In this document: positions 1 through 12,527 of the stretch, in pieces
Layout: each line of letters starts with the position of its first letter
How positions within the stretch are numbered: position 1 is the stretch's first letter
Source of the DNA: Candidatus Kaiserbacteria bacterium
Lineage (GTDB): Bacteria; Patescibacteriota; Minisyncoccia; Phycocordibacterales; UBA918
Assembly (NCBI GenBank): GCA_031430855.1
Contig: JANPCG010000010.1
Span: 35,714-99,713, forward strand
DNA: 64,000 bases
Direction of reading: 5' to 3'
The notes under the pieces: generated by a model
What the model saw: the letters and a program-made list of their open reading frames with translations, nothing else
Databases searched by the model: none
Told to the model about the DNA's origin: nothing
Program-made: the position numbers and the translations under genes

Positions 1-3000
1 GAACATACAACAGTTTACGCTCCAGAGTGGACGAGTATTTGAAACGACAGGCACCTTTACCCATGCCGCCAGTGGGACAGCTACTACCTGGACTGGTTCA
101 ACCTTGCGGCTATCTGGTAGTGATTCGGCCATTAATCTAAAGACTCATGGCGGAGATGTGTACGGTACTATTCAAACGAGTGGTGATACTGACGCGATTG
201 TATGGAATAGTAGTGCGACCAGTATTGTAAACGCGAGTACCTCGTCATTATATTCAGCTGATCATGCGGGGATTGATGGTGACCTTACTATTTACGGTGA
301 TTACGTACGAACGACAGGAACTGAGTTCTGGAGTTTAGCGACTGACTTTGATGGTGTGGCCCTGACTGGTTCAACCAGTCGTCAAGTTGATGTACGAATT
401 GCTACTGGTTCACGAGTCGGCTTTGTTTCTTCGTCGCTTAATCTCGTCGGCGGTAGTGGTGCGACAACTACAATTGACGCAGTATCTGGTGCGTATAGTC
501 TCAGTGCGACAAATACGACGATTACCGCGCAGGCTTTTAGTTTGGCAGGAACAGACACTCAAGGTCTCGTTTTGCAAGCGTCTACTTCCTTGGCTAGTTT
601 CCAAGACGGATTGTTTACTGTTATTCCTGGTCGGAGTGGTATCACTATCAGTAGTACAACCGTCGCACAAAATCCTTCGGCGCAGTACCAGCGGATTAGT
701 TTTGCGACGACCTCAGCTGGGGTTGGAACGAACGTTACCTTGGTTGGTACCACAAGTTCGTTTATCTGGTTCCGTACCGGTGGAGGCAATCTTTATGGTG
801 AAGCGTATGACGGGGGAGATGCAAATCCTGGATCAATTCGATGGGATGATAGTTCAAACTCGATTACGGTGTCCGGTGTCGTCTATTCAAACGATGGAAC
901 AACGATTCTGGGAGCACCGACGTGTAACGGAACCACGCCGAATGTACGGATTGTCGTAAATAATGGTACGTATACCGCTTCAACTACCTGTGCAGTCGGA
1001 ACCGGTGCCTACTCATTTGCGGGGGTAGCCTACGTTGGTGACCCAAAAATTACGGTCTATCTCGACACTAATGGTGGAGTGCGAGGAACTGCTATTACAA
1101 AAACTCCAACTGCAAACATTACGAATATGCATATTTATGCTGATCGTATTATTACTCGTCATCAAGACGTTGTGCCACTGACGATTTCTGACATGACTAC
1201 CTTTGACTTTGATGATGATACAGATATACGATTTATTGCGACCACAACTGGTTCGACTACGCTCACGGTGCTCCCGAACACTAGTCTGTTTGTGTTTGCC
1301 ACAACAACTTTCGCGCCAGGTGGAAATATTACACTCACCGGTAACGCGAGCTCGTCCGCAGTCGAAGGAACGCTTCAGTTAGCTAATGCGGCGACGTTTA
1401 CGGCAACCGGAACAGAAATGCACTCACTTTCAGGCCGGTTAGTGTTAGCTACAACTTCAGTCTTTACTGCGGCATCATCAACCTTTGTCTTTAACGCGAC
1501 CACTTCTGGCAAGAGTATTACGAGTCCAAATACCGTCACGTTTAATCAGCTCCAATTTACTGGAGCTGGTGGTGGTTGGAATATAACTGCGCCACTTATC
1601 GTGCAGGCAAATATGGATATTGCGACCGGAACTGTTACAGGAACAAATAACATCACGCTCACAGGTGGTTCACTCTCCGGTAATGGAACACTCTCGCTTG
1701 GTTCTGGCACCACAACCATTAACCAAACGAATACCCTTGGCGGTACGAGGGCTTGGACATTTGCAAACTTGGTCTTAGGTAATGGTTCGAGTGTAGGCAC
1801 GTCAACTCCTAATACGAGCGCTACTACGACCGTCAGTGGACGTCTTACTATTAGTAATGTTCACGTCCTCAAGGCTAACGCGACCTTGTGGGATCTCTCC
1901 GGTACGGGTACCGTCTTTACCGAAACCGGTACGCTCGTTGAAGACACAAGCACCTTTAGATACAGTGGAACTGCTTCAAATGTACTTTCAACTGGGTACT
2001 ATAATCTTGATCTTAATAGTGGAGCAGGGTCAGCTACGTATACCGCAGTTGGACTGGGTATCAGTGTGGCTAATAACCTCACTATTGGAGGTACTGCGAC
2101 AACAAACTTTAACCTCACCATCAACGACCCACTCTTAGTGGTTGGTAATGACATTTTGATTCGAAGTAACGGTACACTTACGGCCAGTGATATTGCGACG
2201 ACAACAGTGGCTCGTGATTGGATGAACACTGGTGCATTTATAAGTAACGGCGGTACAGTCACCTTTGTTGGTACCGGTTCTTCTACGATTATCGCCAGCT
2301 CATCATCCTTTGGTAATCTCACAATAAATGGTGCGGGTAGCTTTACGGTAGCTTCGAGCGCTACGACAACTGGTGCCTTCATGCTTACAAATCATGCCAA
2401 CTTTACTCTCTCAAGTGGTCGAACGCTCGCGATTGGTGGCAATTTCACTAACGGACTTGGAGGCGGAGCTACCACGTGGACTGGTAGTACACTGCATCTC
2501 TTTGGTGGCAACACGAAAGTAATTAATGCGTCTACGACCAGCGATGTGTACGAAACGCTTTCGGTCGCAGCTAGTACTAATGTTCGTATATGGAATAGCT
2601 CAGCTACAACGTACAATGCAACGGGCGGAATTTACTCACAAGACCATGCAGGTAGTAACGGAGCTCTAAATGTTTACGGTGCCTTCACTTCAAATACGCT
2701 GACTGATCACTGGAGCTACGCTACTGACTTTGATGGTACGTCACTTGCCGGGTCAGAACGAGCGGTAACGGTCTCGTTTGCAAGTAGTAGTAGTGCAACG
2801 TATACCGGAGGTAATCTCTTTGTAGTTGGAACCACTACAGCCTCAACCACTGTTCAAAATCAAGGTGTTGGTCGCTACACGGTGACCATTGGTACGGGAG
2901 CGACAACGCAATGGGATATGGTGCGAGTTCGTAATACTAATACCACCGGAATTGTCTTCACTGGTACTCCTCTCGTAACTGATTTCTCTCGTACTGACCA

Positions 3001-6000
3001 CATCATTGATATCAATAGTGGTACCGCTTTTACTGTCGGCGGTACCGTCATTGATGTGAATCAAGCCAAGAACTTTACGAACAATGTTTTTGCGACTTCC
3101 TCTGGTATCACGAGTGCAAGTAACGTGACAGCCACTGGTACAACCGTTAGTTCGTGGCGCTTTACAAATCATACTGGTGCGCTCTCAGGCGAGTTATATG
3201 ACTCCGACCCGGCTGGTGATCCAGGGTACTTGGTATGGGACAACTCAGCCGCACTCATCACAGTTTCCGGTAATGTGTACAGTGACGAAGGGTCAACAGT
3301 CTCAACTGTCTGTGATGGCACGACCCAAAATGTTGTCCTTCGAGTAGCTGGACTGACGACCTACACTTCATCATGTAATGCCGGAACCGGAGCGTATAGT
3401 ATGAGTGGTGTGGCATTTAGTCCTTCTGACACGCTCACGGTGTATATAGACGGGAATACTCGCAAGGCGGCGACAGTCAGTTCTGATCCAATTTCTTCAA
3501 TTGGTAACATGAACCTCTATGAAAACCGGGTCATTGTGCGGCACGAAAATACCAGCCCACTTTCGATTGCTGATATGGCAGTGTGGGATAGTTCTGACGA
3601 TGCAGACATTCAATTTACGGCGATTGATGCGGGGACAGATACACTCACGCTTCCGGCTGATCAAAAGTTATTAATTTGGAATGGTAAAACATTTGAACCG
3701 AATGGAAATGTGACCGTCTCGGGTGGTGGTGCAGGTGGTGCTCAAGATGGAACTCTCGAAGCGCAAACGAACGCGGTCTTTAGAGCGCAGGGAACAGAAC
3801 AACATACGGTCGGTGGCAGCTTTATCTTTGGTACCGGAGCAACTTTTGTGGCAGCGCAGTCATCAACGACTTTCACCACGACCGGTTCGGGACGCACTGT
3901 TGATGTCAATGCGGCGAGTTTCGGTAATGTTGCCTTTACTGGTTCAGGTAGCTGGACGGTTACTGATGCAACCTTTGCGACGAGTCGTTCATTTACGCAA
4001 ACGAATGGTACTGTAACCTTTGGTGCAGGCACGACAACAGTTGGTCGTTCGTTTAACGCGACTGCTGGTACGTTTATAATGTCTGGTTCGGCTCTTGTGT
4101 TTGTGAGTACGACAACCGGTAATGTTGTGCGCTTTGATGATTCATCGGTACCTGGTCTCCAATTCGTTGGTACTGGTGGAGCGTGGGCTATGACTGATAC
4201 TGATGCGACAACTACCGGTTCGTTTGCGGTGGCATCTGGTACGGTGACCTTGCCGTCTGGAAACCTAACCGTCAGTCGAAACTTCACTAACACTGGTGGA
4301 ACGATCACTAACAATACGTCGGATATTATAATGGTGGCTTCGTCCACAGCGACACTTACCGCCAGTGGCTCGAGTCTGTTTGCAGTGCGCTTCACCGGCG
4401 TTGGTCCGTTTACTATTGGTGATGTGAATTTAACTCTCTTGGATTCTCTGACGCTCGCAACGGGAACGCTTACTCTCGCGACGGGGACGTTATCTGTCGG
4501 TGGTGATTTCCTTATCGCTTCAGGAACGCTTAACAATGCAAGTGGTACGGTACTCTTTAATGCAACTACCGTAGGCAAGACTATAACGTTTGGAGCAAAT
4601 GCACTCTATAACGTGGTGTTTGGAAGTGGTACGGGTGGTTGGAATTTTACCGGGAACGCAACCACTACCAATAATTTCTCGATTACCGGAGCCACTTCGT
4701 TTACAAAAGAAGCCGACACAACCCTTAATGTTGGTGGGGTGTTTACAAACTTGGTTGGTGGTGCTAACACGACGTGGGCAACTTCAACCCTTCGTCTCTA
4801 CGGTACTGCCGGGTATACCCTTAATACCAAAACGGTTGGGGGTGATGTATACGGCACGCTATTTATTGGTACAAACCTACCAGTCAGAAGTTGGAATAGT
4901 AGTGCTGCTACTACGACCGTTAGTGCTGGTTCATCATGGTATTCACAAGATCATGCGGTGGTCGATGGTAATCTCAATATTTACGGTTCACTTACGATTG
5001 CGACGACTACAGAATACTGGAATTATTCGACGGACTTTGATGGTGCTGCCCTTACGGGAGTTAATCAGCGAGCGGTTGCGGTTCGGTTTGCTCAAAATGC
5101 TACCACTACCGTCGCCTCTGGCGCTCTCCAAATTGTCGGAACTACAACGGCATCGACTACGATTGGTAATCAGGCGACTGGTACCTATGCCCTCAGTATT
5201 CATGGTGGAACGTTTACCGCCCAGTACTACGCGTTCTCAAATCTTAATGCGTCTGGTTTGCAATTTGTTAATACTCCAACTATCTCAAATCTTTCAAATG
5301 GCTACTTTAATCTCGCCGTAAACAGTGGGTCATTAATTTCACTAGCAACCACCTCTCTTGATGCAAATGCCTCAAAGATTTGGACAGCGGTTGCGTTTAA
5401 TGCCACTTCCGGTCTCTCTGGTACTAACGTCAACCTCTCAGGATCATCGAGTAACGCGTGGCGTTTCAGTGGCAGTTACGGAAACCTGGGTGGTGAGGAC
5501 TACGATAACGATGGCGCCACTGCCTGTGGATCAATTCGGTGGGATAATAGTGGATGTTTACTGACACAACAAAGTTATATCCGCTGGCGTAATGATGATG
5601 GTGGGGAAGGTGCGCCACAAAGTGAGTGGTTTAATACCTCCTTTGATTACCGTAAGCGAGTTCGGGTAGTTAATAGTGATGCAAGTAACTATGCGAGTAC
5701 GGCGGTTAAGATAAATGTGACCTACGATAGTAATATGCAGTCCGACTTTGATGATTTACGCTTCACTGCAAATGATGGTACTACTACCATTCCCTATTGG
5801 ATTGAACGCTATACCGCGAGTACTGACGCGGTGGTGTGGGTCCGCGTTCCAAATATTGCCGCGAGCAGTATTGCCACTGTCTTTATGTACTATGGAAGTA
5901 GTACCGCGCCAAACAGTAGCTCGGGGTCTACTACGTTTGCTGCCTTTGATGATTTTGAAGACAATAACATTACCGAGTACGCTGGCGATACCGGTATATT

Positions 6001-7840
6001 CCAAACGGATACCACTCCGGTGTATGGTGGCACCTACGCGCTTGAAGCGTTAAATAAATCGGCTCGCGCGACTGACGGTATTTTCCGCACTGCACTCACG
6101 GTCAGTCAGGGTCAAATCATCCGCTGGATGCAATACATTGATACCGTTGCCGGCTCGGGAGATGAAGCGTGTACCCTCTTTGGGGTCCAGTCACCAGGTA
6201 CGAACAATAATAATTACGCTGTATGTCTTGAACAGTTTGGTACTGATCGGATTGCCATCTCTGAGAATGTTTCAGATAACGATGTGTCTGGTACTGTACT
6301 TTCGTCAACGACAGTAAGCTACACCACCGGGTGGTATGAAGTAGAGGTTGATTGGCAGACTAATAATACGATGAAAGCGTATCTCCGTACTGCAGCAGGC
6401 GCCTTGGTTGCATCAACTACTGCGACTGATGCCTCGTACACCACTGGTGGTATGGGCTTTACCTTCTGGTTCCAAAATGGTTCATGGGATAGCTTTACGG
6501 CGCGTGCGCGAGCTATGATCGCGCCAACAGTGTACTTTGGTGACGAGCAAACAGATGGTGGAGCAACCTGGGCAGCCGCTCAAAATGCACTCGGGTCGGG
6601 AATTCCTGGTACGGTACGTCGTCTCCGGGTCGGAATCGAAAATTCAGGTCTTAATGTAACTGGACAAACCTATCGACTTGAATACGCAGGGAAAGGTGTA
6701 GCGCCAAGTTGTGAGGCGGTGAGTTCTGGTAGTTATACCGCTGTGCCAAATCAAGCGAGTTGTGGTAGTTCTCCCGTCTGTATGCAAACCTCTACTAATA
6801 TTACTGATGGTGATGCTACAACCGACTTGCTTTCGAGTACTACTGGTGCGTTTACGGCTGGTCGAATTGTTGAGAGTCCATCTAATATCACGAGCGCTCT
6901 TAATATTAACCAAAACTTCTACACAGAGCTTGAGTATGCGATTACTCCAACAGTTAATGCCTCCGACGCCTATTGTTTCCGGGTCACTAATGGAGGGACA
7001 CCGCTCGATTTCTACAATAAAATAGCTGAGCTTGGTCTGCAGTTCGATCCAGTATTTGGACCAGTGAGTGTCAATAATGGTAATCCGATTATTTTGAATC
7101 CTGGTACGACAACGGCTATCTTTGCAACAGGTACCGTAACAGATTTTAATGGGCCGGGTGATTTGCAGCGAGCAACGTCAACCCTCTATCGAAGTAGTGC
7201 TGGTCCAAGTTGTGTTCGCAATAACAATAATTGTTATATTAGTAACACAGCGAGTTCTACTTGTACGTTCACCAACTGTTCTGGTAATACTTGTACGTTG
7301 TCATGTCGAGCAGATATTTTCTTCCACGCTGATGCGACTGACGTAGTGCCGTATGAAGGGGAAGAGTGGACGGCGTTCCTGGAGGTGTCTGATACTGGTG
7401 GAGGCTATGATTTTGCATCACCAGTCACAGGGGTAGAACTGCAGACATTACGTTATATGACGGTAGATACTGGCATTAACTACGGATCCCTTGCCGTAAC
7501 TGAAAACACTGGCGCATATAACCCAACTACTACAATATCTAATCTCGGAAATGTTGCATTCAACCTAGAAGTGTCAGGCAGTAACCTGACTGATGGCGGA
7601 TCTTCAGTCATCCCAGCTAATAAACAGAAATTTGCCAGTACTACTTTTATCTATAACTCATGTATCAGTTGTTCACTCGTTTCAACCAGTACCCCTGTAG
7701 TATTGGCGCTTGGTATCACTAAACCGACGGTTGCTACTCCACCAGTCTCAGCACCTATCTACTGGGGAATTGAAGTACCGCTAGGAGTAGCAAGTGTACC
7801 GCATCAGGGTATCAACTACTTCACGCCAGTTTCGCCGTAG
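1..7840 (+). CDS. Giant Thr/Ser/Gly-rich cell-surface protein (5'-partial, >2578 aa). It has beta-helix/adhesin-like repeats, then a DUF2341-like segment and a jelly-roll-like C-terminal region.
   Basis: The reading frame is open from nt 2 in the same frame as the 104 TTG, and the upstream residues already show the repeat motif (TGSTLRLSG), so the gene starts before the window. Three super-repeats each contain WNSSAT...SQDHAG..G.L.[IV]YG...T.[EH][FY]W[SN][LY][AS]TDFDG..L[TA]G. At nt ~5579-5910 the protein reads IRWRNDDGGE...YRKRVRVVNSD...DLRFTANDGTTTIPYWIERYTASTDAVVWVRVPNIAASSIATVFMYYGSS, which matches the DUF2341 consensus I remember (DirF..dG..L.yeIE.wd...a.vWVkvp.l....iymYYGN). Confidence 0.8.
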   Translation, partial: NIQQFTLQSGRVFETTGTFTHAASGTATTWTGSTLRLSGSDSAINLKTHGGDVYGTIQTSGDTDAIVWNSSATSIVNASTSSLYSADHAGIDGDLTIYGDYVRTTGTEFWSLATDFDGVALTGSTSRQVDVRIATGSRVGFVSSSLNLVGGSGATTTIDAVSGAYSLSATNTTITAQAFSLAGTDTQGLVLQASTSLASFQDGLFTVIPGRSGITISSTTVAQNPSAQYQRISFATTSAGVGTNVTLVGTTSSFIWFRTGGGNLYGEAYDGGDANPGSIRWDDSSNSITVSGVVYSNDGTTILGAPTCNGTTPNVRIVVNNGTYTASTTCAVGTGAYSFAGVAYVGDPKITVYLDTNGGVRGTAITKTPTANITNMHIYADRIITRHQDVVPLTISDMTTFDFDDDTDIRFIATTTGSTTLTVLPNTSLFVFATTTFAPGGNITLTGNASSSAVEGTLQLANAATFTATGTEMHSLSGRLVLATTSVFTAASSTFVFNATTSGKSITSPNTVTFNQLQFTGAGGGWNITAPLIVQANMDIATGTVTGTNNITLTGGSLSGNGTLSLGSGTTTINQTNTLGGTRAWTFANLVLGNGSSVGTSTPNTSATTTVSGRLTISNVHVLKANATLWDLSGTGTVFTETGTLVEDTSTFRYSGTASNVLSTGYYNLDLNSGAGSATYTAVGLGISVANNLTIGGTATTNFNLTINDPLLVVGNDILIRSNGTLTASDIATTTVARDWMNTGAFISNGGTVTFVGTGSSTIIASSSSFGNLTINGAGSFTVASSATTTGAFMLTNHANFTLSSGRTLAIGGNFTNGLGGGATTWTGSTLHLFGGNTKVINASTTSDVYETLSVAASTNVRIWNSSATTYNATGGIYSQDHAGSNGALNVYGAFTSNTLTDHWSYATDFDGTSLAGSERAVTVSFASSSSATYTGGNLFVVGTTTASTTVQNQGVGRYTVTIGTGATTQWDMVRVRNTNTTGIVFTGTPLVTDFSRTDHIIDINSGTAFTVGGTVIDVNQAKNFTNNVFATSSGITSASNVTATGTTVSSWRFTNHTGALSGELYDSDPAGDPGYLVWDNSAALITVSGNVYSDEGSTVSTVCDGTTQNVVLRVAGLTTYTSSCNAGTGAYSMSGVAFSPSDTLTVYIDGNTRKAATVSSDPISSIGNMNLYENRVIVRHENTSPLSIADMAVWDSSDDADIQFTAIDAGTDTLTLPADQKLLIWNGKTFEPNGNVTVSGGGAGGAQDGTLEAQTNAVFRAQGTEQHTVGGSFIFGTGATFVAAQSSTTFTTTGSGRTVDVNAASFGNVAFTGSGSWTVTDATFATSRSFTQTNGTVTFGAGTTTVGRSFNATAGTFIMSGSALVFVSTTTGNVVRFDDSSVPGLQFVGTGGAWAMTDTDATTTGSFAVASGTVTLPSGNLTVSRNFTNTGGTITNNTSDIIMVASSTATLTASGSSLFAVRFTGVGPFTIGDVNLTLLDSLTLATGTLTLATGTLSVGGDFLIASGTLNNASGTVLFNATTVGKTITFGANALYNVVFGSGTGGWNFTGNATTTNNFSITGATSFTKEADTTLNVGGVFTNLVGGANTTWATSTLRLYGTAGYTLNTKTVGGDVYGTLFIGTNLPVRSWNSSAATTTVSAGSSWYSQDHAVVDGNLNIYGSLTIATTTEYWNYSTDFDGAALTGVNQRAVAVRFAQNATTTVASGALQIVGTTTASTTIGNQATGTYALSIHGGTFTAQYYAFSNLNASGLQFVNTPTISNLSNGYFNLAVNSGSLISLATTSLDANASKIWTAVAFNATSGLSGTNVNLSGSSSNAWRFSGSYGNLGGEDYDNDGATACGSIRWDNSGCLLTQQSYIRWRNDDGGEGAPQSEWFNTSFDYRKRVRVVNSDASNYASTAVKINVTYDSNMQSDFDDLRFTANDGTTTIPYWIERYTASTDAVVWVRVPNIAASSIATVFMYYGSSTAPNSSSGSTTFAAFDDFEDNNITEYAGDTGIFQTDTTPVYGGTYALEALNKSARATDGIFRTALTVSQGQIIRWMQYIDTVAGSGDEACTLFGVQSPGTNNNNYAVCLEQFGTDRIAISENVSDNDVSGTVLSSTTVSYTTGWYEVEVDWQTNNTMKAYLRTAAGALVASTTATDASYTTGGMGFTFWFQNGSWDSFTARARAMIAPTVYFGDEQTDGGATWAAAQNALGSGIPGTVRRLRVGIENSGLNVTGQTYRLEYAGKGVAPSCEAVSSGSYTAVPNQASCGSSPVCMQTSTNITDGDATTDLLSSTTGAFTAGRIVESPSNITSALNINQNFYTELEYAITPTVNASDAYCFRVTNGGTPLDFYNKIAELGLQFDPVFGPVSVNNGNPIILNPGTTTAIFATGTVTDFNGPGDLQRATSTLYRSSAGPSCVRNNNNCYISNTASSTCTFTNCSGNTCTLSCRADIFFHADATDVVPYEGEEWTAFLEVSDTGGGYDFASPVTGVELQTLRYMTVDTGINYGSLAVTENTGAYNPTTTISNLGNVAFNLEVSGSNLTDGGSSVIPANKQKFASTTFIYNSCISCSLVSTSTPVVLALGITKPTVATPPVSAPIYWGIEVPLGVASVPHQGINYFTPVSP
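104..5570 (+). repeat. Three diverged copies of a ~2.3-2.4 kb (~795 aa) super-repeat inside the giant gene.
   Basis: The anchor motif WNSSAT occurs at nt ~206, ~2590 and ~4885 (spacings 2384 and 2295 nt). Each copy is followed by SQDHAG, Y/WxxATDFDG and RxVxVxFA blocks. The similarity is at protein level, not near-identical DNA. Confidence 0.6.
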
Positions 7841-7848
7841 GTAATGAT

Positions 7849-9324
7849 ATGATTACACCAATGGTACAACGATGGCTTGTTTTAGGTGGCATTTTGCTTG
7901 CAATGCCTTTTGGTGTGATTGCTCAAACTAACGATTTGGTGGCACCTGAAATCACTAATGTAAAAGTAGCGAGCTCTACCGCTACGAGCATTACCGTAAC
8001 GTGGGTGACAGATGAAAAAGCTGATTCATCAGTTAACTATAGTTTACAACCCGACCTCGGCGTTGTTCGTAAACCACTCGCTGATCGAACCAATCACTCG
8101 ATTACAATTGATAATCTTGAAGCGGGGAAAACCTATTATTTCAGGGTAATTTCTGCAGACGTCGATGGTAATCAGGGTATTTCAGCTGACTATAAGATTG
8201 AGAGTCCAGAGTCATCGTCCAAAACAACAGAATCAACCACGAAAAATACCGTTCAGGTAGAATCACAAACGACCCAAGAAATCGTTGAGCAAATTAATCA
8301 AATTACTAACCCGCAACAATTGCAGGAAATCCTTAATGAAACCATTAAGGCAATTAAAGGAATTACCGAAGACCTCACCATTGTTGGTCCTCCTACCGTT
8401 GAGCCAGAGACAACCTTTGCTGTCGTGAAGTGGATCACTGACCGGCCGGCAAGTGGTGAGGTAGTTTTCTCACCTACAAGTGGGTTTAATGGTTCAAATT
8501 TTGCGTTCTCGCAGTCATCAACCGGAGATCGGACTACTGATCATGAAATTCGTTTAATCGGCCTTGAGCCTTTTACTGAATATAGTTTCCAGGTTCGTTC
8601 AACTGATGAGTATGGTATTACCGGAGAAAGTCGTAATTACACGTTTCGTACCAAAGCGTCTTTACCTGATATTCGTAACTTGCGTATCGTAAAGGTTGAA
8701 GAAAATGCAGCTACGCTTGCGTGGGATACAACCGTACCAGCAAAAGCCTTGATTGAATATCAGGATTTGACCACCGGGGTACAGAATTCAGTCGGTCGAC
8801 CGACCTTGGCGACCACACACCAGATGCGCTTGGCTGACTTGACCTTGGGAACTCGCTACGTAGCCTTCGTGATAGCAGAAAATTCTGGTGGTGACCGTGT
8901 TCGTAGTCAACCGATTCAGTTTATTACCGTGCGTGATATCGCTCCACCAATCATTACCAATGTAACGAACGAATCAACTATTTTTCCCGGTGGAGAATCT
9001 CGAATTCAAACGATTGTTGAATGGAATACGGACGAAGCTGCATCATGTTTGATGACCTATCGAGAAGGAGTTGCCGGGGGAGTTGATCCGGTTACGATTG
9101 AACAAGAGAATGTGCAGTATTCAACCAGTCACGTAGAAGTAATTGTTGATTTCGCGCCAGCGACAGTGTATCAGTTCTGGCTTAACTGTACGGATGAAGC
9201 GAAAAATACCATTCAGTCTGAAAACTTTGTCCTCTTTACCCCAATTCAAGAGAAAAATATTATTGATTTGATCTTGGAGAACTTTGAGTCGACTTTTGGC
9301 TGGGTTAAGAATATAACTAATTAA
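7849..9324 (+). CDS. Secreted protein with about four fibronectin type III-like domains.
   Basis: There is an N-terminal signal peptide (MITPMVQRWLVLGGILLAMPFGVIAQ). Repeated Fn3-like units follow (ITVTWVTDEKADSSVNY...GKTYYFRVISADVDGNQG; ATLAWDTTVPAKALIEYQ...GTRYVAFVIAENSGG). The gene is 6 nt downstream of the giant gene's stop. Confidence 0.7.
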   Translation: MITPMVQRWLVLGGILLAMPFGVIAQTNDLVAPEITNVKVASSTATSITVTWVTDEKADSSVNYSLQPDLGVVRKPLADRTNHSITIDNLEAGKTYYFRVISADVDGNQGISADYKIESPESSSKTTESTTKNTVQVESQTTQEIVEQINQITNPQQLQEILNETIKAIKGITEDLTIVGPPTVEPETTFAVVKWITDRPASGEVVFSPTSGFNGSNFAFSQSSTGDRTTDHEIRLIGLEPFTEYSFQVRSTDEYGITGESRNYTFRTKASLPDIRNLRIVKVEENAATLAWDTTVPAKALIEYQDLTTGVQNSVGRPTLATTHQMRLADLTLGTRYVAFVIAENSGGDRVRSQPIQFITVRDIAPPIITNVTNESTIFPGGESRIQTIVEWNTDEAASCLMTYREGVAGGVDPVTIEQENVQYSTSHVEVIVDFAPATVYQFWLNCTDEAKNTIQSENFVLFTPIQEKNIIDLILENFESTFGWVKNITN

Positions 9325-9427
9325 AATTATTTATTTCTTAATCCGCCAAAAGGTTCCAGGACTTTCATTAGGGATAGAAAGTCGGAACAAAGTAAAATCA
9401 TACAACCTTACGGTTGTTGTTTTACTT

Positions 9428-9457
9428 TTCGGTTGGGTTAAGAACATCACCAACTAG
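9428..9457 (+). pseudogene. Ghost 3' end: a second copy of the last 9 codons plus stop of the upstream Fn3 gene (FGWVKNITN*), with synonymous changes.
   Basis: The gene ends ttt ggc tgg gtt aag aat ata act aat taa (9295-9324). About 104 nt downstream, ttc ggt tgg gtt aag aac atc acc aac tag encodes the identical 9 residues plus a stop, with 8 silent differences. The frame upstream has no Met and reaches an in-frame stop. Confidence 0.5.
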
Positions 9458-9839
9458 AGCCTAAAAACAGCGAACTTCTTTGTCAGGCTGCAGTAAAAAT
9501 TTTCTCACTGTACAAGGAGTACGGCTCATAAATTTTTCCTTGCCCTCCTCGAATTTCATCTGTTTTATAGACTCTAGTAAAAAAATCTTTCTCTATGGCG
9601 TTTTATCTTCCGTCGTATTTTTTCCCATTTTGCAGAAGCTATTCACTCATTAGAAATTTTTTTCTTTACCTTACAAAATTGCTCAAAGAGTCTTGCGAAG
9701 TGACTTTATGTCACTTCTCACCTCTCATTGCATCCAATTCTTAAAGTTTTTTAGAAATAAAATTTAATAAGACTAAAGATACATTTATTAACTGTGAGTT
9801 GTCTCGATATATATACAGTGAGCGTGTCATAATACATAA

Positions 9840-11162
9840 ATGGCAAAGCCGCTTATCACGTGTCGTGATCTTTCTATTATTTACAACAAAGGAAAGTCTA
9901 ACGAATTCCGTGCACTCCAAAATGTAAACACTGACATCTATGAAGGTGAGTATATTATTCTGTTCGGTGCGTCTGGCTCAGGGAAATCTACCCTGATGTA
10001 TTCAATTCAGGGCTCACTCCCACCGGGAGATGGGACGCTGCTTATTCGAGGTGATGATATTTACTCCTATCCGCCATCAGAGCGAGTTTATTTTCAACGG
10101 TACGTGATGGGTATTATCTTCCAGTCATTTAACCTGATTGGGTCGCTGTCAGTGCTCGACAATGTTGCTTTGCCACAAATTTTTTGTGATGTTGATAAAA
10201 CTACGCGCGATAGACGCGCCCAGTCACTTTTAGACCGCTTTGGGGTAGGTCATGTATCACACAAATTGCCCTCGATGCTCTCTGGAGGTCAGCAGCAACG
10301 TGTCTCGGTAGCTCGTTCGATGGTGAATGACCCAAAGATTTTGCTGGCGGACGAGCCGACGGGTAACCTTGACTCGGTTTCCACGCAGCAAGTAATGGAC
10401 AAAATTGATGAAATTAACACGTTTGATAGACGGACCATTATTATGGTGTCGCACAACGCTGCCCACTTAAGCTACGCCCACCGCGTGTATTACCTCAAAG
10501 ACGGCTTTGTCGTGCGTGAAGTGGTAAATCCACAACGAAAACAAATTAAACCAGTGCGAGAAGGGGAGACAATTGTAACCGAACTCGAACAATTAGCGCG
10601 GTTATTTCCCTACGATTCAGTTGAGACGCTTCGGGTCAAGAGTTTGGTGAATTATTTAACTCAGGATTACACCTTTAATCAACTAAATCGTTTAGAACGG
10701 GCTGTTGCTTACTTTATAAATGGAAAGATTGACCGTGACTCTTTTGTAAAAGCCCTGATTCTCCCGGCTGAACAGGGTGGAGTCGAAATGCCTGAGTTTA
10801 AAGCGAAGCAGATGGCCAAACAAAGTGAAATTTTAATCCATCAATCAGACGATATTCGTCGTTTCCGGGCCAAAAAAGACAATCCAGGAGTATTTTTTGA
10901 TCAACATAAACTTGCCGAGCGATTAAAAGATCATGTATTACATATATATCGAATAAAGATGAGTAAAGAAATGGATGATAATCTGACTGAATTAATTGCT
11001 GACCGTGTTACCGGAGTAATTGAGGAAAGTGAATTCAATGCCAAGTTAATGGTAGGAGTGCGACAACATGGGCTGGCACTATCAGAAAAGGAAGCCGACG
11101 AAGTAACTCGTTATTTTGAAAAATTAATTGCGCAAGGGGTGGATGTGAGTTACAAGAGCTAA
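9840..11162 (+). CDS. ABC transporter ATP-binding protein (MacB/LolD/FtsE-like) with a ~200-aa helical C-terminal extension.
   Basis: Walker A is GASGSGKST, Q-loop IFQSFNL, ABC signature LSGGQQQRVSVAR, Walker B ILLADEPTGNLD and H-loop MVSHN. The 440-aa length leaves a C-terminal half (aa 230-440) that I do not recognise. Confidence 0.85.
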   Translation: MAKPLITCRDLSIIYNKGKSNEFRALQNVNTDIYEGEYIILFGASGSGKSTLMYSIQGSLPPGDGTLLIRGDDIYSYPPSERVYFQRYVMGIIFQSFNLIGSLSVLDNVALPQIFCDVDKTTRDRRAQSLLDRFGVGHVSHKLPSMLSGGQQQRVSVARSMVNDPKILLADEPTGNLDSVSTQQVMDKIDEINTFDRRTIIMVSHNAAHLSYAHRVYYLKDGFVVREVVNPQRKQIKPVREGETIVTELEQLARLFPYDSVETLRVKSLVNYLTQDYTFNQLNRLERAVAYFINGKIDRDSFVKALILPAEQGGVEMPEFKAKQMAKQSEILIHQSDDIRRFRAKKDNPGVFFDQHKLAERLKDHVLHIYRIKMSKEMDDNLTELIADRVTGVIEESEFNAKLMVGVRQHGLALSEKEADEVTRYFEKLIAQGVDVSYKS

Positions 11163-11318
11163 AGAGAAGATGGAATATTGAATAGGGAAGAAAGAAAATA
11201 AAATAATCAAAAGTGAATAATGAGTCTTTTACTATTTTGTAAATGGTATTATTTAATTATGTAAATTGGAGGTATACACCCGAAAGTATTTTTGTGTGTG
11301 TCACCCTCAATATTAATT

Positions 11319-12527
11319 ATGCGAATTCAAGATCTTGCACAACTTTCCACTCGAATGTTCAAAACGAATCCACTGCGTACGTGGTTAACTATTTTAGGTA
11401 TGGGTGTAGGAACCGGGGCAGTAGTAATTTTGGTGGGTCTGGGGTTTGGTTTGCAGCAAATTATTTTGGAACAAATTGTGTTCGGAGAAACCCTACTTTC
11501 ACTTGGTGTATCCGCTACCGGGGCGCAAAACCTTAAATTAACAGCTGAAACGGTTACCCAATTTGAAACTAAGCCGGAAGTTCTTGATGCTGCTCCCTTA
11601 GCTCGGTTCCCAGCGCTCGTTACTTACAAAGGACTCACCGGTAATGTGTTTATTCAAGGTGTAGAACCACCATATCTACGGTACGCTGGAGTCACCGCTA
11701 CTGCGGGTACTGTTTTTACCGATGCTGATGCAGCAGACACTAACTCGGTCATGCTCTCACCCGCGGTACTCAAATTATTCGGGATTGAAGATCCAAAAAG
11801 TTTCGTGGGGCAAAAAGTCGCCTTTCGAATTTTAATTCCCGCTGAAGATGGGACTGATACTAATACTGAAATTCTGATCGAAAAAGAATATACCGTCCGC
11901 GGCATTACCAAAGAAGAAGGAGTCTTGAATGCCATGATGATGTTACCTGAGTTACGGAACTATGTCGGTATTGAGGAGTATGAGCGTATTCAAGTTCGGG
12001 TTGATACCAATGAAAATTTACCCTTAGTAGAAAAACAACTGATTGAAGAAGGGTATCGCGTAACCGCGCTCTCAAAGACTGTTGAGCAAGCCTCAAAAAT
12101 TTTCCAGGGTGTACAGGCAGTGCTGGCTACCTTCGGAGGGATTGCGCTCCTAGTATCTGCAATTGGAATGTTTAATACGATGACGGTGACTCTCCTCGAG
12201 CGTACCAAAGAGATTGGAATTATGCGCACTATTGGTGCCTCTCCAAACGATGTAAAGTATCTCTTCGTATCAGAATCTGTGGTGGTGGGCTTTATGGGTG
12301 GGGTTACTGGAGTAGCTATGGGAGTAGCGTTAGGATTGGCAGTTAATTTGTTTTTAAATATTGTAGCTGGTCAATTTGGTGGACAGTCAGTGAGACTATT
12401 CTCATTTCCCTTAGGCTTCCTGACATTCATTATTGTTTTTTCGGCAGGTGTGGGGTATCTCACTGGAATTTTCCCGGCACGGCGGGCATCGTCACTTAAT
12501 CCGCTTGACGCGATTCGGTATGAATAG
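11319..12527 (+). CDS. ABC transporter permease, FtsX/MacB family (N-terminal TM, large extracytoplasmic domain, three C-terminal TM helices).
   Basis: The N-terminus is a TM helix (LRTWLTILGMGVGTGAVVILV), followed by a ~230-aa periplasmic domain. The C-terminal FtsX-like block reads TFGGIALLVSAIGMFNTMTVTLLERTKEIGIMRTIGASPNDV. It sits immediately downstream of the ABC ATPase. Start 11319 (MRIQDL) is preferred over 11292. Confidence 0.8.
   Translation: MRIQDLAQLSTRMFKTNPLRTWLTILGMGVGTGAVVILVGLGFGLQQIILEQIVFGETLLSLGVSATGAQNLKLTAETVTQFETKPEVLDAAPLARFPALVTYKGLTGNVFIQGVEPPYLRYAGVTATAGTVFTDADAADTNSVMLSPAVLKLFGIEDPKSFVGQKVAFRILIPAEDGTDTNTEILIEKEYTVRGITKEEGVLNAMMMLPELRNYVGIEEYERIQVRVDTNENLPLVEKQLIEEGYRVTALSKTVEQASKIFQGVQAVLATFGGIALLVSAIGMFNTMTVTLLERTKEIGIMRTIGASPNDVKYLFVSESVVVGFMGGVTGVAMGVALGLAVNLFLNIVAGQFGGQSVRLFSFPLGFLTFIIVFSAGVGYLTGIFPARRASSLNPLDAIRYE

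Follow-up and report, generated by a model that had tools for sequence, protein, structure and literature searches.

A displaced gene end behind an Fn3-repeat surface protein gene in Kaiserbacteria, probably pushed downstream by a shared cassette that carries a replacement end

Introduction

In Escherichia coli K-12, the working icd gene at prophage e14 ends in element-borne sequence that differs from the original end mostly by silent changes, and the original C-terminal fragment remains as a pseudogene, icdC, on the far side of the element (PMC13626634). One-sided, short-arm homology-facilitated illegitimate recombination of linear DNA, another way in which foreign sequence can be joined to a resident gene, has been documented for transformation and conjugation (PMC3240628). 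Here we describe an arrangement related to both in a Candidatus Kaiserbacteria bacterium (assembly GCA_031430855.1, contig JANPCG010000010.1, positions 35,714 to 99,713), within a stretch of 64,000 nucleotides that we refer to as the window. In this window the last nine codons and the stop codon of an Fn3-repeat surface protein gene recur a short distance downstream of the gene, after 103 nt of noncoding DNA. We argue that this second copy, which we call the ghost, is very probably the resident end of the gene, left behind when a cassette with its own version of the gene end came to lie in front of it.

The closest analogue is icd/icdC at e14, together with elements that integrate into the 3' ends of genes or tRNAs and supply a replacement end. 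As at icd, two copies of the gene end (9292-9324 and 9428-9457) flank the intervening 103 nt, the upstream copy completes the open reading frame (ORF), and the original end persists, untranslated, as the far member of a direct repeat whose two copies would recombine on loss of the insert (PMC13626634). Relatives with an empty site are known here too (window/L004, L060/L007, L057/L006, and L046/L026, where L numbers denote related loci). The differences from icd/icdC are nevertheless substantial. The insert is 103 nt of noncoding hairpins rather than a 15-kb prophage, the repeat measures about 33 nt, neither an integrase nor att machinery was found in the cassette or in the larger spacers of relatives, the crossover points appear variable, which points to homologous recombination, and several unrelated inserts occupy the same site. 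The arrangement also resembles homology-facilitated illegitimate recombination, or short-arm recombination in natural transformation, in combining a strong homologous anchor, the gene tail, with a very short match at the opposite end, where leftover recipient sequence is expected (PMC3240628). Unlike the junctions of illegitimate recombination, however, which are normally scattered, the junction seen here is the same in many lineages and is shared by unrelated inserts.

Results

The Fn3 gene closes at 9295-9324 with TTT GGC TGG GTT AAG AAT ATA ACT AAT TAA, and at 9428-9457 the sequence reads TTC GGT TGG GTT AAG AAC ATC ACC AAC TAG; both translate to FGWVKNITN* (coordinates of the features are collected in Table 1). 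A nonapeptide and stop repeated with silent changes only is what the original prediction, made from this DNA alone, had described, and the translations agree with it, although the 8 of 30 differing bases counted there come to 7 of 30 on recount. Every one of these mismatches falls on a third codon position and is silent, the TAA/TAG difference included; the probability that all 7 would lie on third positions is 6e-5. The chance of the nonapeptide plus stop is about 2e-14 at a given position and about 3e-9 over the whole window and both strands, and at the DNA level about 8e-4 matches of 23/30 are expected per window. The ghost frame, which is +1 relative to the Fn3 gene and opens about 110 nt upstream, had been said to lack a start, and indeed no ATG, GTG, or TTG was found in it. 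No other window ORF of at least 100 amino acids (aa) has a copy of its tail within 600 nt downstream. The motif was found only at the Fn3 gene and not downstream of unrelated genes. An assembly artifact is ruled out by the presence of the gene-end/ghost arrangement in at least 10 independent assemblies and by the size of the identical core, only 11 nt in the window. Tandem duplication was rejected because the sequences after the working end and after the ghost are unrelated, and target-site duplication followed by neutral decay because the differences are all silent and ghosts match the working ends of relatives.

The identity of the ghost was sought in related Paceibacteria in which the site is empty. 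In loci L004, L007, and L006, ghost-type sequence is the working end of the gene and the cassette is absent; in L004 (JAIELQ010000007), the working end TTCGGTTGGGTTAAAAACATCACCAACTAA is of the ghost type, and directly next to it lies the sequence that follows the ghost in the window. When the post-ghost flank of a filled locus was compared with the post-stop flank of an empty one, identity was 88% for window/L004 (over 90 nt), 93% for L060/L007, and 77% for L057/L006. Measured against the nearest empty-locus working end, the ghost has 2 mismatches in window/L004, 1 in L057/L004, and 2 in L060/L007. Cassette DNA reaches at most 47% identity with the post-stop flanks of empty sites, which is the random level. 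Because the flanks and working ends of empty sites match the post-ghost flank and the ghost, respectively, the window carries an insertion of ~133 nt, and we consider it highly likely that the ghost at 9428-9457 is the resident end, pushed downstream by a horizontally shared cassette with a replacement end. The displaced end is untranslated and still abuts its original flank (a conserved element, E1, and then an ABC transporter operon).

These comparisons also separate what can be kept of the original prediction from what cannot. The ghost does stem, as had been proposed, from a 3' end that once worked and was shaped by coding constraint; it is not the relic of a lost paralogue or second gene, since empty-site relatives end one single-copy gene with ghost-type sequence and the same flank. 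No second Fn3 gene lies between the Fn3 gene and the ABC operon in 50 loci, and FGWVKN occurs only twice in the 64-kb window. Nor was any evidence found that a gene body had been deleted or replaced; instead, a ~133-nt cassette with its own copy of the last 11 codons was added. The idea that recombination acts at the 3' end of this gene is borne out by a step in divergence between the window and L002 and by a breakpoint inside the cassette in L005/L057, both described below.

The cassette consists of a replacement Thr-Phe...stop end (A1) followed by a structured 3' untranslated region (UTR) of 103 nt, and the end that it supplies, Thr-Phe-Gly-Trp-Val-Lys-Asn-Ile-Thr-Asn-stop, leaves the protein unchanged. 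It was found in at least 8 lineages, and the metagenome-assembled genomes that carry it include JBJOPW01 and CAYSNO01. A1 and the 103 nt are 91-99% identical among the window, L002, L009, L010, L051, and L005. In this set the gene body reaches only 73-79% identity and the tail 76-93%, and the post-ghost flanks of different lineages agree at 57-75%. When gene ends were compared codon by codon, synonymous sites in the last 11 codons proved to be fixed in cassette-bearing loci, with normal variation in the codons immediately before them. The cassette has a sharp left edge: L005 and L057 are of their subclade type (CAG AGT) up to the codon before ACT and of the cassette type from ACT onward. Additional filled loci are L051, L057, L059, and L060, L051 being the only extra locus from the metagenome scan with the core of hairpin HP2. 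The contig of the closest relative (L052; P0001, 94%) ends inside the loop of hairpin HP1 and therefore provides no flank. In the Fn3 tree, filled loci interleave with the empty loci L004, L039, L006, L007, L003, L008, and L013, giving a patchy distribution.

Table 1. Positions of the gene, cassette, ghost, and neighboring features in the window
Feature	Position	Strand	Remarks
Fn3-repeat surface protein gene	7849..9324	+	491 aa; ORF list, translation, Pfam, tail conservation in 120 homologues
Inserted 3'-end replacement cassette	9292..9427	+	~133 nt, boundaries +/-3 nt; absent from L004, L007, L006; single-copy in window
A1, cassette-borne working gene end	9292..9324	+	ACT TTT GGC TGG GTT AAG AAT ATA ACT AAT TAA; also 5' arm of HP1
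HP1 hairpin	9293..9352	+	~26 bp, stop codon near apex; minimum free energy fold, pair table
HP2 hairpin	9353..9388	+	12 bp; 100% of cells paired, G:C<->A:U covariation
HP3 hairpin	9389..9428	+	A-run and T-run flanks; inner stem 9402-9417; fold, covariation, terminator scan
Ghost (A2), displaced resident 3' end (probable)	9428..9457	+	2/30 nt from L004 working end; next 90 nt 88% identical to L004 post-stop flank
E1, extended stem-loop	9454..9577	.	~124 nt; resident flank, not cassette; RNAalifold
ABC transporter ATPase gene	9840..11162	+	Pfam; constant downstream neighbor of Fn3 gene
MacB/FtsX-type permease gene	11292-12527		After ATPase, ABC operon; Pfam

Neither the window nor 60 loci nor the metagenome scan yielded a copy of the cassette core outside the post-Fn3 context. 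The 103 nt of the cassette contain no ORF, and a phage origin was rejected, as the cassette has no match in INPHARED phages or IMG/VR. The larger spacers between the Fn3 and ABC genes of relatives encode no integrase or transposase; the only ORFs in enlarged spacers are TrpR/YerC-like (L011, L048, and L020) or, in L022, an uncharacterised one of 529 aa. L059 carries a diverged variant of the cassette (2331-2512) with a longer HP2 and a compensated HP3. In that locus the working end and the ghost are identical except for the first codon, and the near-identity of the two copies, as read from sequence, suggests either recent gene conversion between them or a recent origin.

The ghost is not translated and not required. 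Its distance from A1 is 131, 132, 133, or 139 nt depending on the lineage; these offsets cover all three frames, a start codon is absent, and the product would only repeat the same peptide, all of which speaks against translation of the ghost. Strain L005 indicates that it is dispensable: this locus matches L057 at 99-100% identity across the gene and into the cassette as far as AAAGTAAA, and from there on it has a different hairpin, with neither HP3 nor ghost. Readthrough, frameshifting, and ribosome hopping were ruled out by the variable offsets and the identical product; for programmed recoding there is no conserved frame relation, and AAT TAA A was judged not slippery from reading the sequence. 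Across 8 lineages, third codon positions make up 9 of the 10 variable sites of the ghost, and 7 of the 8 ghosts translate to FGWVKNITN*, so the ghost shows no decay. This pattern fits gene ends that worked until recently or that have been exchanged again and again with working ones.

Three hairpins in a row are predicted for the region 9288-9432, at a minimum free energy of -53.4 kcal/mol (z = -8.65). Within HP1 the 3' arm (9326-9352) repeats the last ten codons imperfectly and in inverted orientation, and in an alignment of 8 sequences 97.6% of HP1 cells are paired, with compensatory changes at 5 pairs between silent sites of A1 and the inverted arm. For the whole cassette, pairing extends to 98.1% of cells, with compensatory changes at 11 pairs; these values were reached by 0 of 500 shuffles, and slid controls collapsed. 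One G.U pair is conserved in all sequences, and it points to the plus-strand RNA, i.e., the 3' UTR of the Fn3 mRNA, as the structured molecule. HP3 resembles an intrinsic (Rho-independent) terminator in having a G+C-containing stem-loop and, after it, a T run, though this run is interrupted (TGTTTTACTT), and a terminator scan, which found 3 sites where 0.3 were expected, flags HP3 at 9402-9417 on both strands. On this structural model the cassette is a selected RNA structure, and the benefit that it confers may be a 3' UTR that stabilizes or terminates the Fn3 mRNA. No Rfam family was found for the cassette or for E1: the region 9100-10000 gave only chance-level, miRNA-like hairpin matches with E of at least 0.6, far below gathering scores.

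Small palindromic intergenic elements such as Correia/NEMIS, ERIC, REP/BIME, RUP, and BOX lie in 3' UTRs and form RNA stem-loops. The cassette resembles these families in size (about 100-150 nt), in its hairpin-rich RNA, in its position after a stop codon, and in a plausible role in stability or termination at the 3' end of the mRNA. Unlike them, it is confined to one site and one copy in the 64-kb window, the 60 loci, and the metagenome scan; terminal inverted repeats are absent, the inverted copy lying 12-30 nt after A1 and not at the right end; it shows no short identical target duplication, the flanking repeats being about 33 nt long with 7 silent differences; and it brings along the coding end of its target. 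A template-switch (quasi-palindrome) mutation creates perfect hairpins and could have produced the 3' arm of HP1, in which the coding end recurs in inverted form and which then coevolved with the 5' arm. Such a mutation would account for the inverted copy only and not for the direct ghost copy.

Other inserts are found at the same site. L046 has an unrelated insert of 112 nt, with a working end ..NIGA* and a ghost TFGWVKNIGG*. The corresponding empty site is L026, whose flank is collinear. L011 and L048 look like carriers of a third insert type: they have in common a hairpin with the loop TCCCYKYGGGGTC, and their ghosts read (I)GWVKNIGGN* and ..KNIGGGG*. In L011 (5579-5790), the last 12 nt of the ghost (GGAGGAAACTAG) form a perfect hairpin with the downstream sequence CTAGTTTCCTCC, and the unit CTGCGGCTAGTTTCCTCCGGTCC recurs about 150 nt further on in the spacer. 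The spacers at L011 5579-5790, L048 about 724-900, and L020 3812-4000 are those with the TrpR/YerC-like ORF, which is about 150 aa long. A further insert after the Fn3 stop, beginning AATGAGCMAACGAG..GTAGC.GACTAT, is present in L003 (5449-5790) and L039 (5386-5720), which belong to two different subclades.

Points of recombination could be located by comparing lineages along the locus. The window and L002 encode the same Fn3 protein, with gene DNA that is 1.2% diverged, and from the ghost onward their divergence is 6-8%. The ghost of L002 is identical to that of L009, with a flank that is window/L004-like; the ghost of the window is L004-type from its first codon. As its last tail codons the window has TTT GAG TCG, the form seen in the L009 clade, in place of the TTC CAG AGT of its own subclade. 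Between L005 and L057 the breakpoint lies inside the cassette. The Fn3 gene end is thus a recombination hot spot, and because the crossover points differ between lineages, we read them as homologous recombination of imported DNA. The working ends of L003 and L013 look like chimeras of A1 and ghost (AAT ATA ACT AAT TAG and ..ACT AAC TAG), and chimeric ends of this kind are what loss of a cassette through recombination between the repeats would leave.

The Fn3 protein has at least 2 Fn3 domains (Pfam fn3 / Pur_ac_phosph_N) and a signal-like N-terminal segment. Homologues, at least 968 in all, are numerous in Patescibacteria (metagenome-assembled genomes of Paceibacteria, Kaiserbacteria, and Parcubacteria) at overall identities of 65-94%, and among 120 of them the 35-aa C-terminal tail SENFVLFTPIQEKNIIDLILENF[EQ]STFGWVKNI.. 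(9190-9324 in the window, residues about 457-491) is almost invariant, although the rest of the protein is 65-80% identical across the family. This conservation suggests an interaction or anchoring signal, possibly tied to the MacB-type ABC transporter that is always adjacent. The order of Fn3 gene and ABC transporter operon is kept in 50 of 50 loci, with a highly variable spacer of 3-2001 nt. Directly upstream of the Fn3 gene, at 104-7840 (+), is a giant ORF of 2578 aa, the product of which carries a DUF2341 annotation in related loci and reaches up to 7485 aa in L056; the gene order of giant protein, Fn3 protein, and ABC transporter is conserved. A literature search on this Fn3/ABC gene cluster in Patescibacteria gave nothing relevant.

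The resident flank begins with E1, for which RNAalifold on 14 loci gave 36 pairs, 29 of them with compensatory changes. Stretches homologous to it occur in L002, L004, L007-L010, L026, L033, L037, L046, L051, L056, and L060. The resident (ghost) stop codon forms part of its outer stem, which covaries according to whether that codon is TAG or TAA, and its conserved internal loops are TTTCTTTGTTG and GCGCCTCGAAYTGCAT. A minus-strand ORF of 32 aa (9461..9559) overlaps E1, but the conservation of the hairpin is not matched in its amino acids. A second conserved noncoding element, E2, lies at about 9620-9745, upstream of the ABC gene, and is similar in L003, L039, and L006; its hairpin, GAAGTGAC-TTTAT-GTCACTTC, precedes TCACCTCTCATTGCATCC, and in this layout it is similar to the 3' half of E1.

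Discussion

As to how the cassette spreads, we lean somewhat toward homologous recombination over a dedicated enzyme. Related Paceibacteria lineages would gain the cassette from one another when imported DNA recombines homologously, for which the ultra-conserved tail-coding DNA would serve as the left anchor and a match of roughly 30 nt between the donor ghost and the recipient's own gene end as the right anchor. The ghost would then be a relic and a right-hand homology arm at once, re-sampled from working gene ends, which would explain why it keeps a perfect coding look. The cassette would be lost again, and the distribution become patchy, wherever A1 recombined with the ghost on the same chromosome or an empty allele took the place of the filled one. 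The first ghost may have originated in one-sided homology-facilitated illegitimate recombination, in Campbell-type integration of a small circle, or in a site-specific activity.

Several points weigh against this account. No direct sign of mobility, such as a circular or excised form or a donor-recipient pair caught mid-transfer, was found. The junctions are tight: the left crossover in L005/L057 lies within about 3 nt of the cassette, and the first ghost codon (TTC) is already resident-type in the window and in L057. Such junctions fit precise site-specific insertion at least as well as random crossovers. Thirty bases make a short homology arm. The step in divergence between gene and flank seen in filled/empty pairs is also present between empty loci, where it arises because the ABC gene is more conserved, and replacement of the gene body is therefore not shown by the step. 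Two to three unrelated inserts have ghosts that begin at the same Thr/Phe codons, which is not explained by random illegitimate joining and is the main unexplained point. In addition, the role of the hairpins as terminator or stabilizer is one predicted from structure, and the search for further cassette copies or a recombinase spanned 64 kb of the window genome and +/-4 kb around the loci of relatives.

Tight junctions would follow directly if the cassette were a non-autonomous site-specific mobile element, either a miniature attL-insert-attR unit or a small circle integrating Campbell-style, with its recombinase encoded elsewhere, TTYGGYTGGGTTAAGAA as its target, and the ghost as the attR-side remnant. 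Direct repeats of the gene end do flank the insert, with the working copy being element-type; the junctions are identical in all lineages; the unrelated inserts of L046 and L011/L048 have ghosts that start from the same Thr/Phe codons; A1 and the ghost share an identical core of 11-23 nt (TGGGTTAAGAA in the window, 23 nt in L046); and icd/icdC at e14 is a precedent (PMC13626634). The crossovers, however, are variable, with L002 combining a donor-type ghost and a resident-type flank and the window having donor-type codons upstream of the cassette; the 103 nt have no ORF, and the larger Fn3-ABC spacers no integrase or transposase; a double-stranded circle of 133 bp is implausibly small; and the cassette core has no other copy in the window, the 60 loci, out-of-context metagenome sequence, or the phage and viral collections. 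We regard an element of this kind as unlikely. Compared by eye with integron attC sites, GTTAAGA and TCTTAAT deviate from the RYYYAAC ... GTTRRRY consensus, the start of the repeats lies 10 nt or more upstream of GTT, and no intI was seen in the flanks. A wider conjecture, which we put forward tentatively and with considerable doubt, makes the Fn3 3' end a docking site for undescribed miniature cassettes (the window, L046, and L011/L048 types), each with its own last ~11 codons and a structured RNA. These would insert at the same Thr/Phe codon, displace the previous end, and be stackable like integron cassettes, and they would be moved either by a site-specific activity or by carried homology alone, the latter amounting to a recombinase-free element that repairs its own insertion site.

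Two other explanations concern the ghost rather than the movement of the cassette. It could be the last remnant of a second Fn3 gene, paralogous or allelic, that once lay downstream and had its body deleted or replaced; it clearly evolved as coding sequence, recombination breakpoints do occur at this 3' end, and the flank is more similar than the body in filled/empty pairs (93% versus about 80% in L060/L007), which could mean that a foreign allele replaced the resident body. That step in identity between gene and flank exists between empty loci as well, though, and the homology of the ghost stops at the Thr/Phe codon in every lineage, whereas the conserved tail runs 100 nt further. With empty sites consisting of one gene with a ghost-type end, no second Fn3 gene before the ABC operon in the 50 loci, and FGWVKN present only twice in the window, a paralogue relic is very improbable. 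We give scarcely more than passing credence to selection on the ghost as a functional nucleic acid motif, whether as a protein-binding or RNA-pairing site, as an alternative partner of the HP1 arm, as part of E1, or as the end of a readthrough or frameshift extension. The core is present three times (direct, inverted, direct), and each direct copy is in principle a possible pairing partner of the inverted arm; the outer stem of E1 takes in the last 4-7 nt of the ghost and covaries with its stop, TAG versus TAA; and the frame from the gene stop to the ghost is open in all lineages. Yet the variation of the ghost is codon-patterned (9/10 third positions) and tracks the working ends of each lineage's relatives, conservation runs 13 nt past what the inverted arm could pair, and the terminator-like HP3 precedes the ghost. 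The offsets of 131, 132, 133, and 139 nt place it in three frames, in which translation would only repeat the same peptide; L005 does without it; and no such motif was found near other genes. Silent cassettes of the pilE/pilS type are not supported because FGWVKN-type sequence occurs only twice in the window and the ghost is the invariant end only, nor is a diversity-generating retroelement because the differences (T/C, C/T, A/C, and A/G at third positions) are not confined to adenine and the neighbors are ABC transporter genes.

For annotation, the locus carries a warning that short pseudo-ends after genes can mark recent recombination and not lost genes, and it brings to light E1, a well-supported, unnamed structured element directly after the Fn3 gene in many lineages. 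On the reading that the ghost is the displaced resident end, filled and empty sites together show how a gene of Patescibacteria, which are episymbionts with tiny genomes, can gain a structured 3' UTR or terminator with its protein undamaged: a spare coding end arrives with the imported DNA, and the old one stays behind. If it is true that spread needs only the homology carried by the cassette, this would be a minimal form of DNA mobility with no element-encoded enzyme, and ultra-conserved coding ends elsewhere would be the predicted landing pads for such cassettes.

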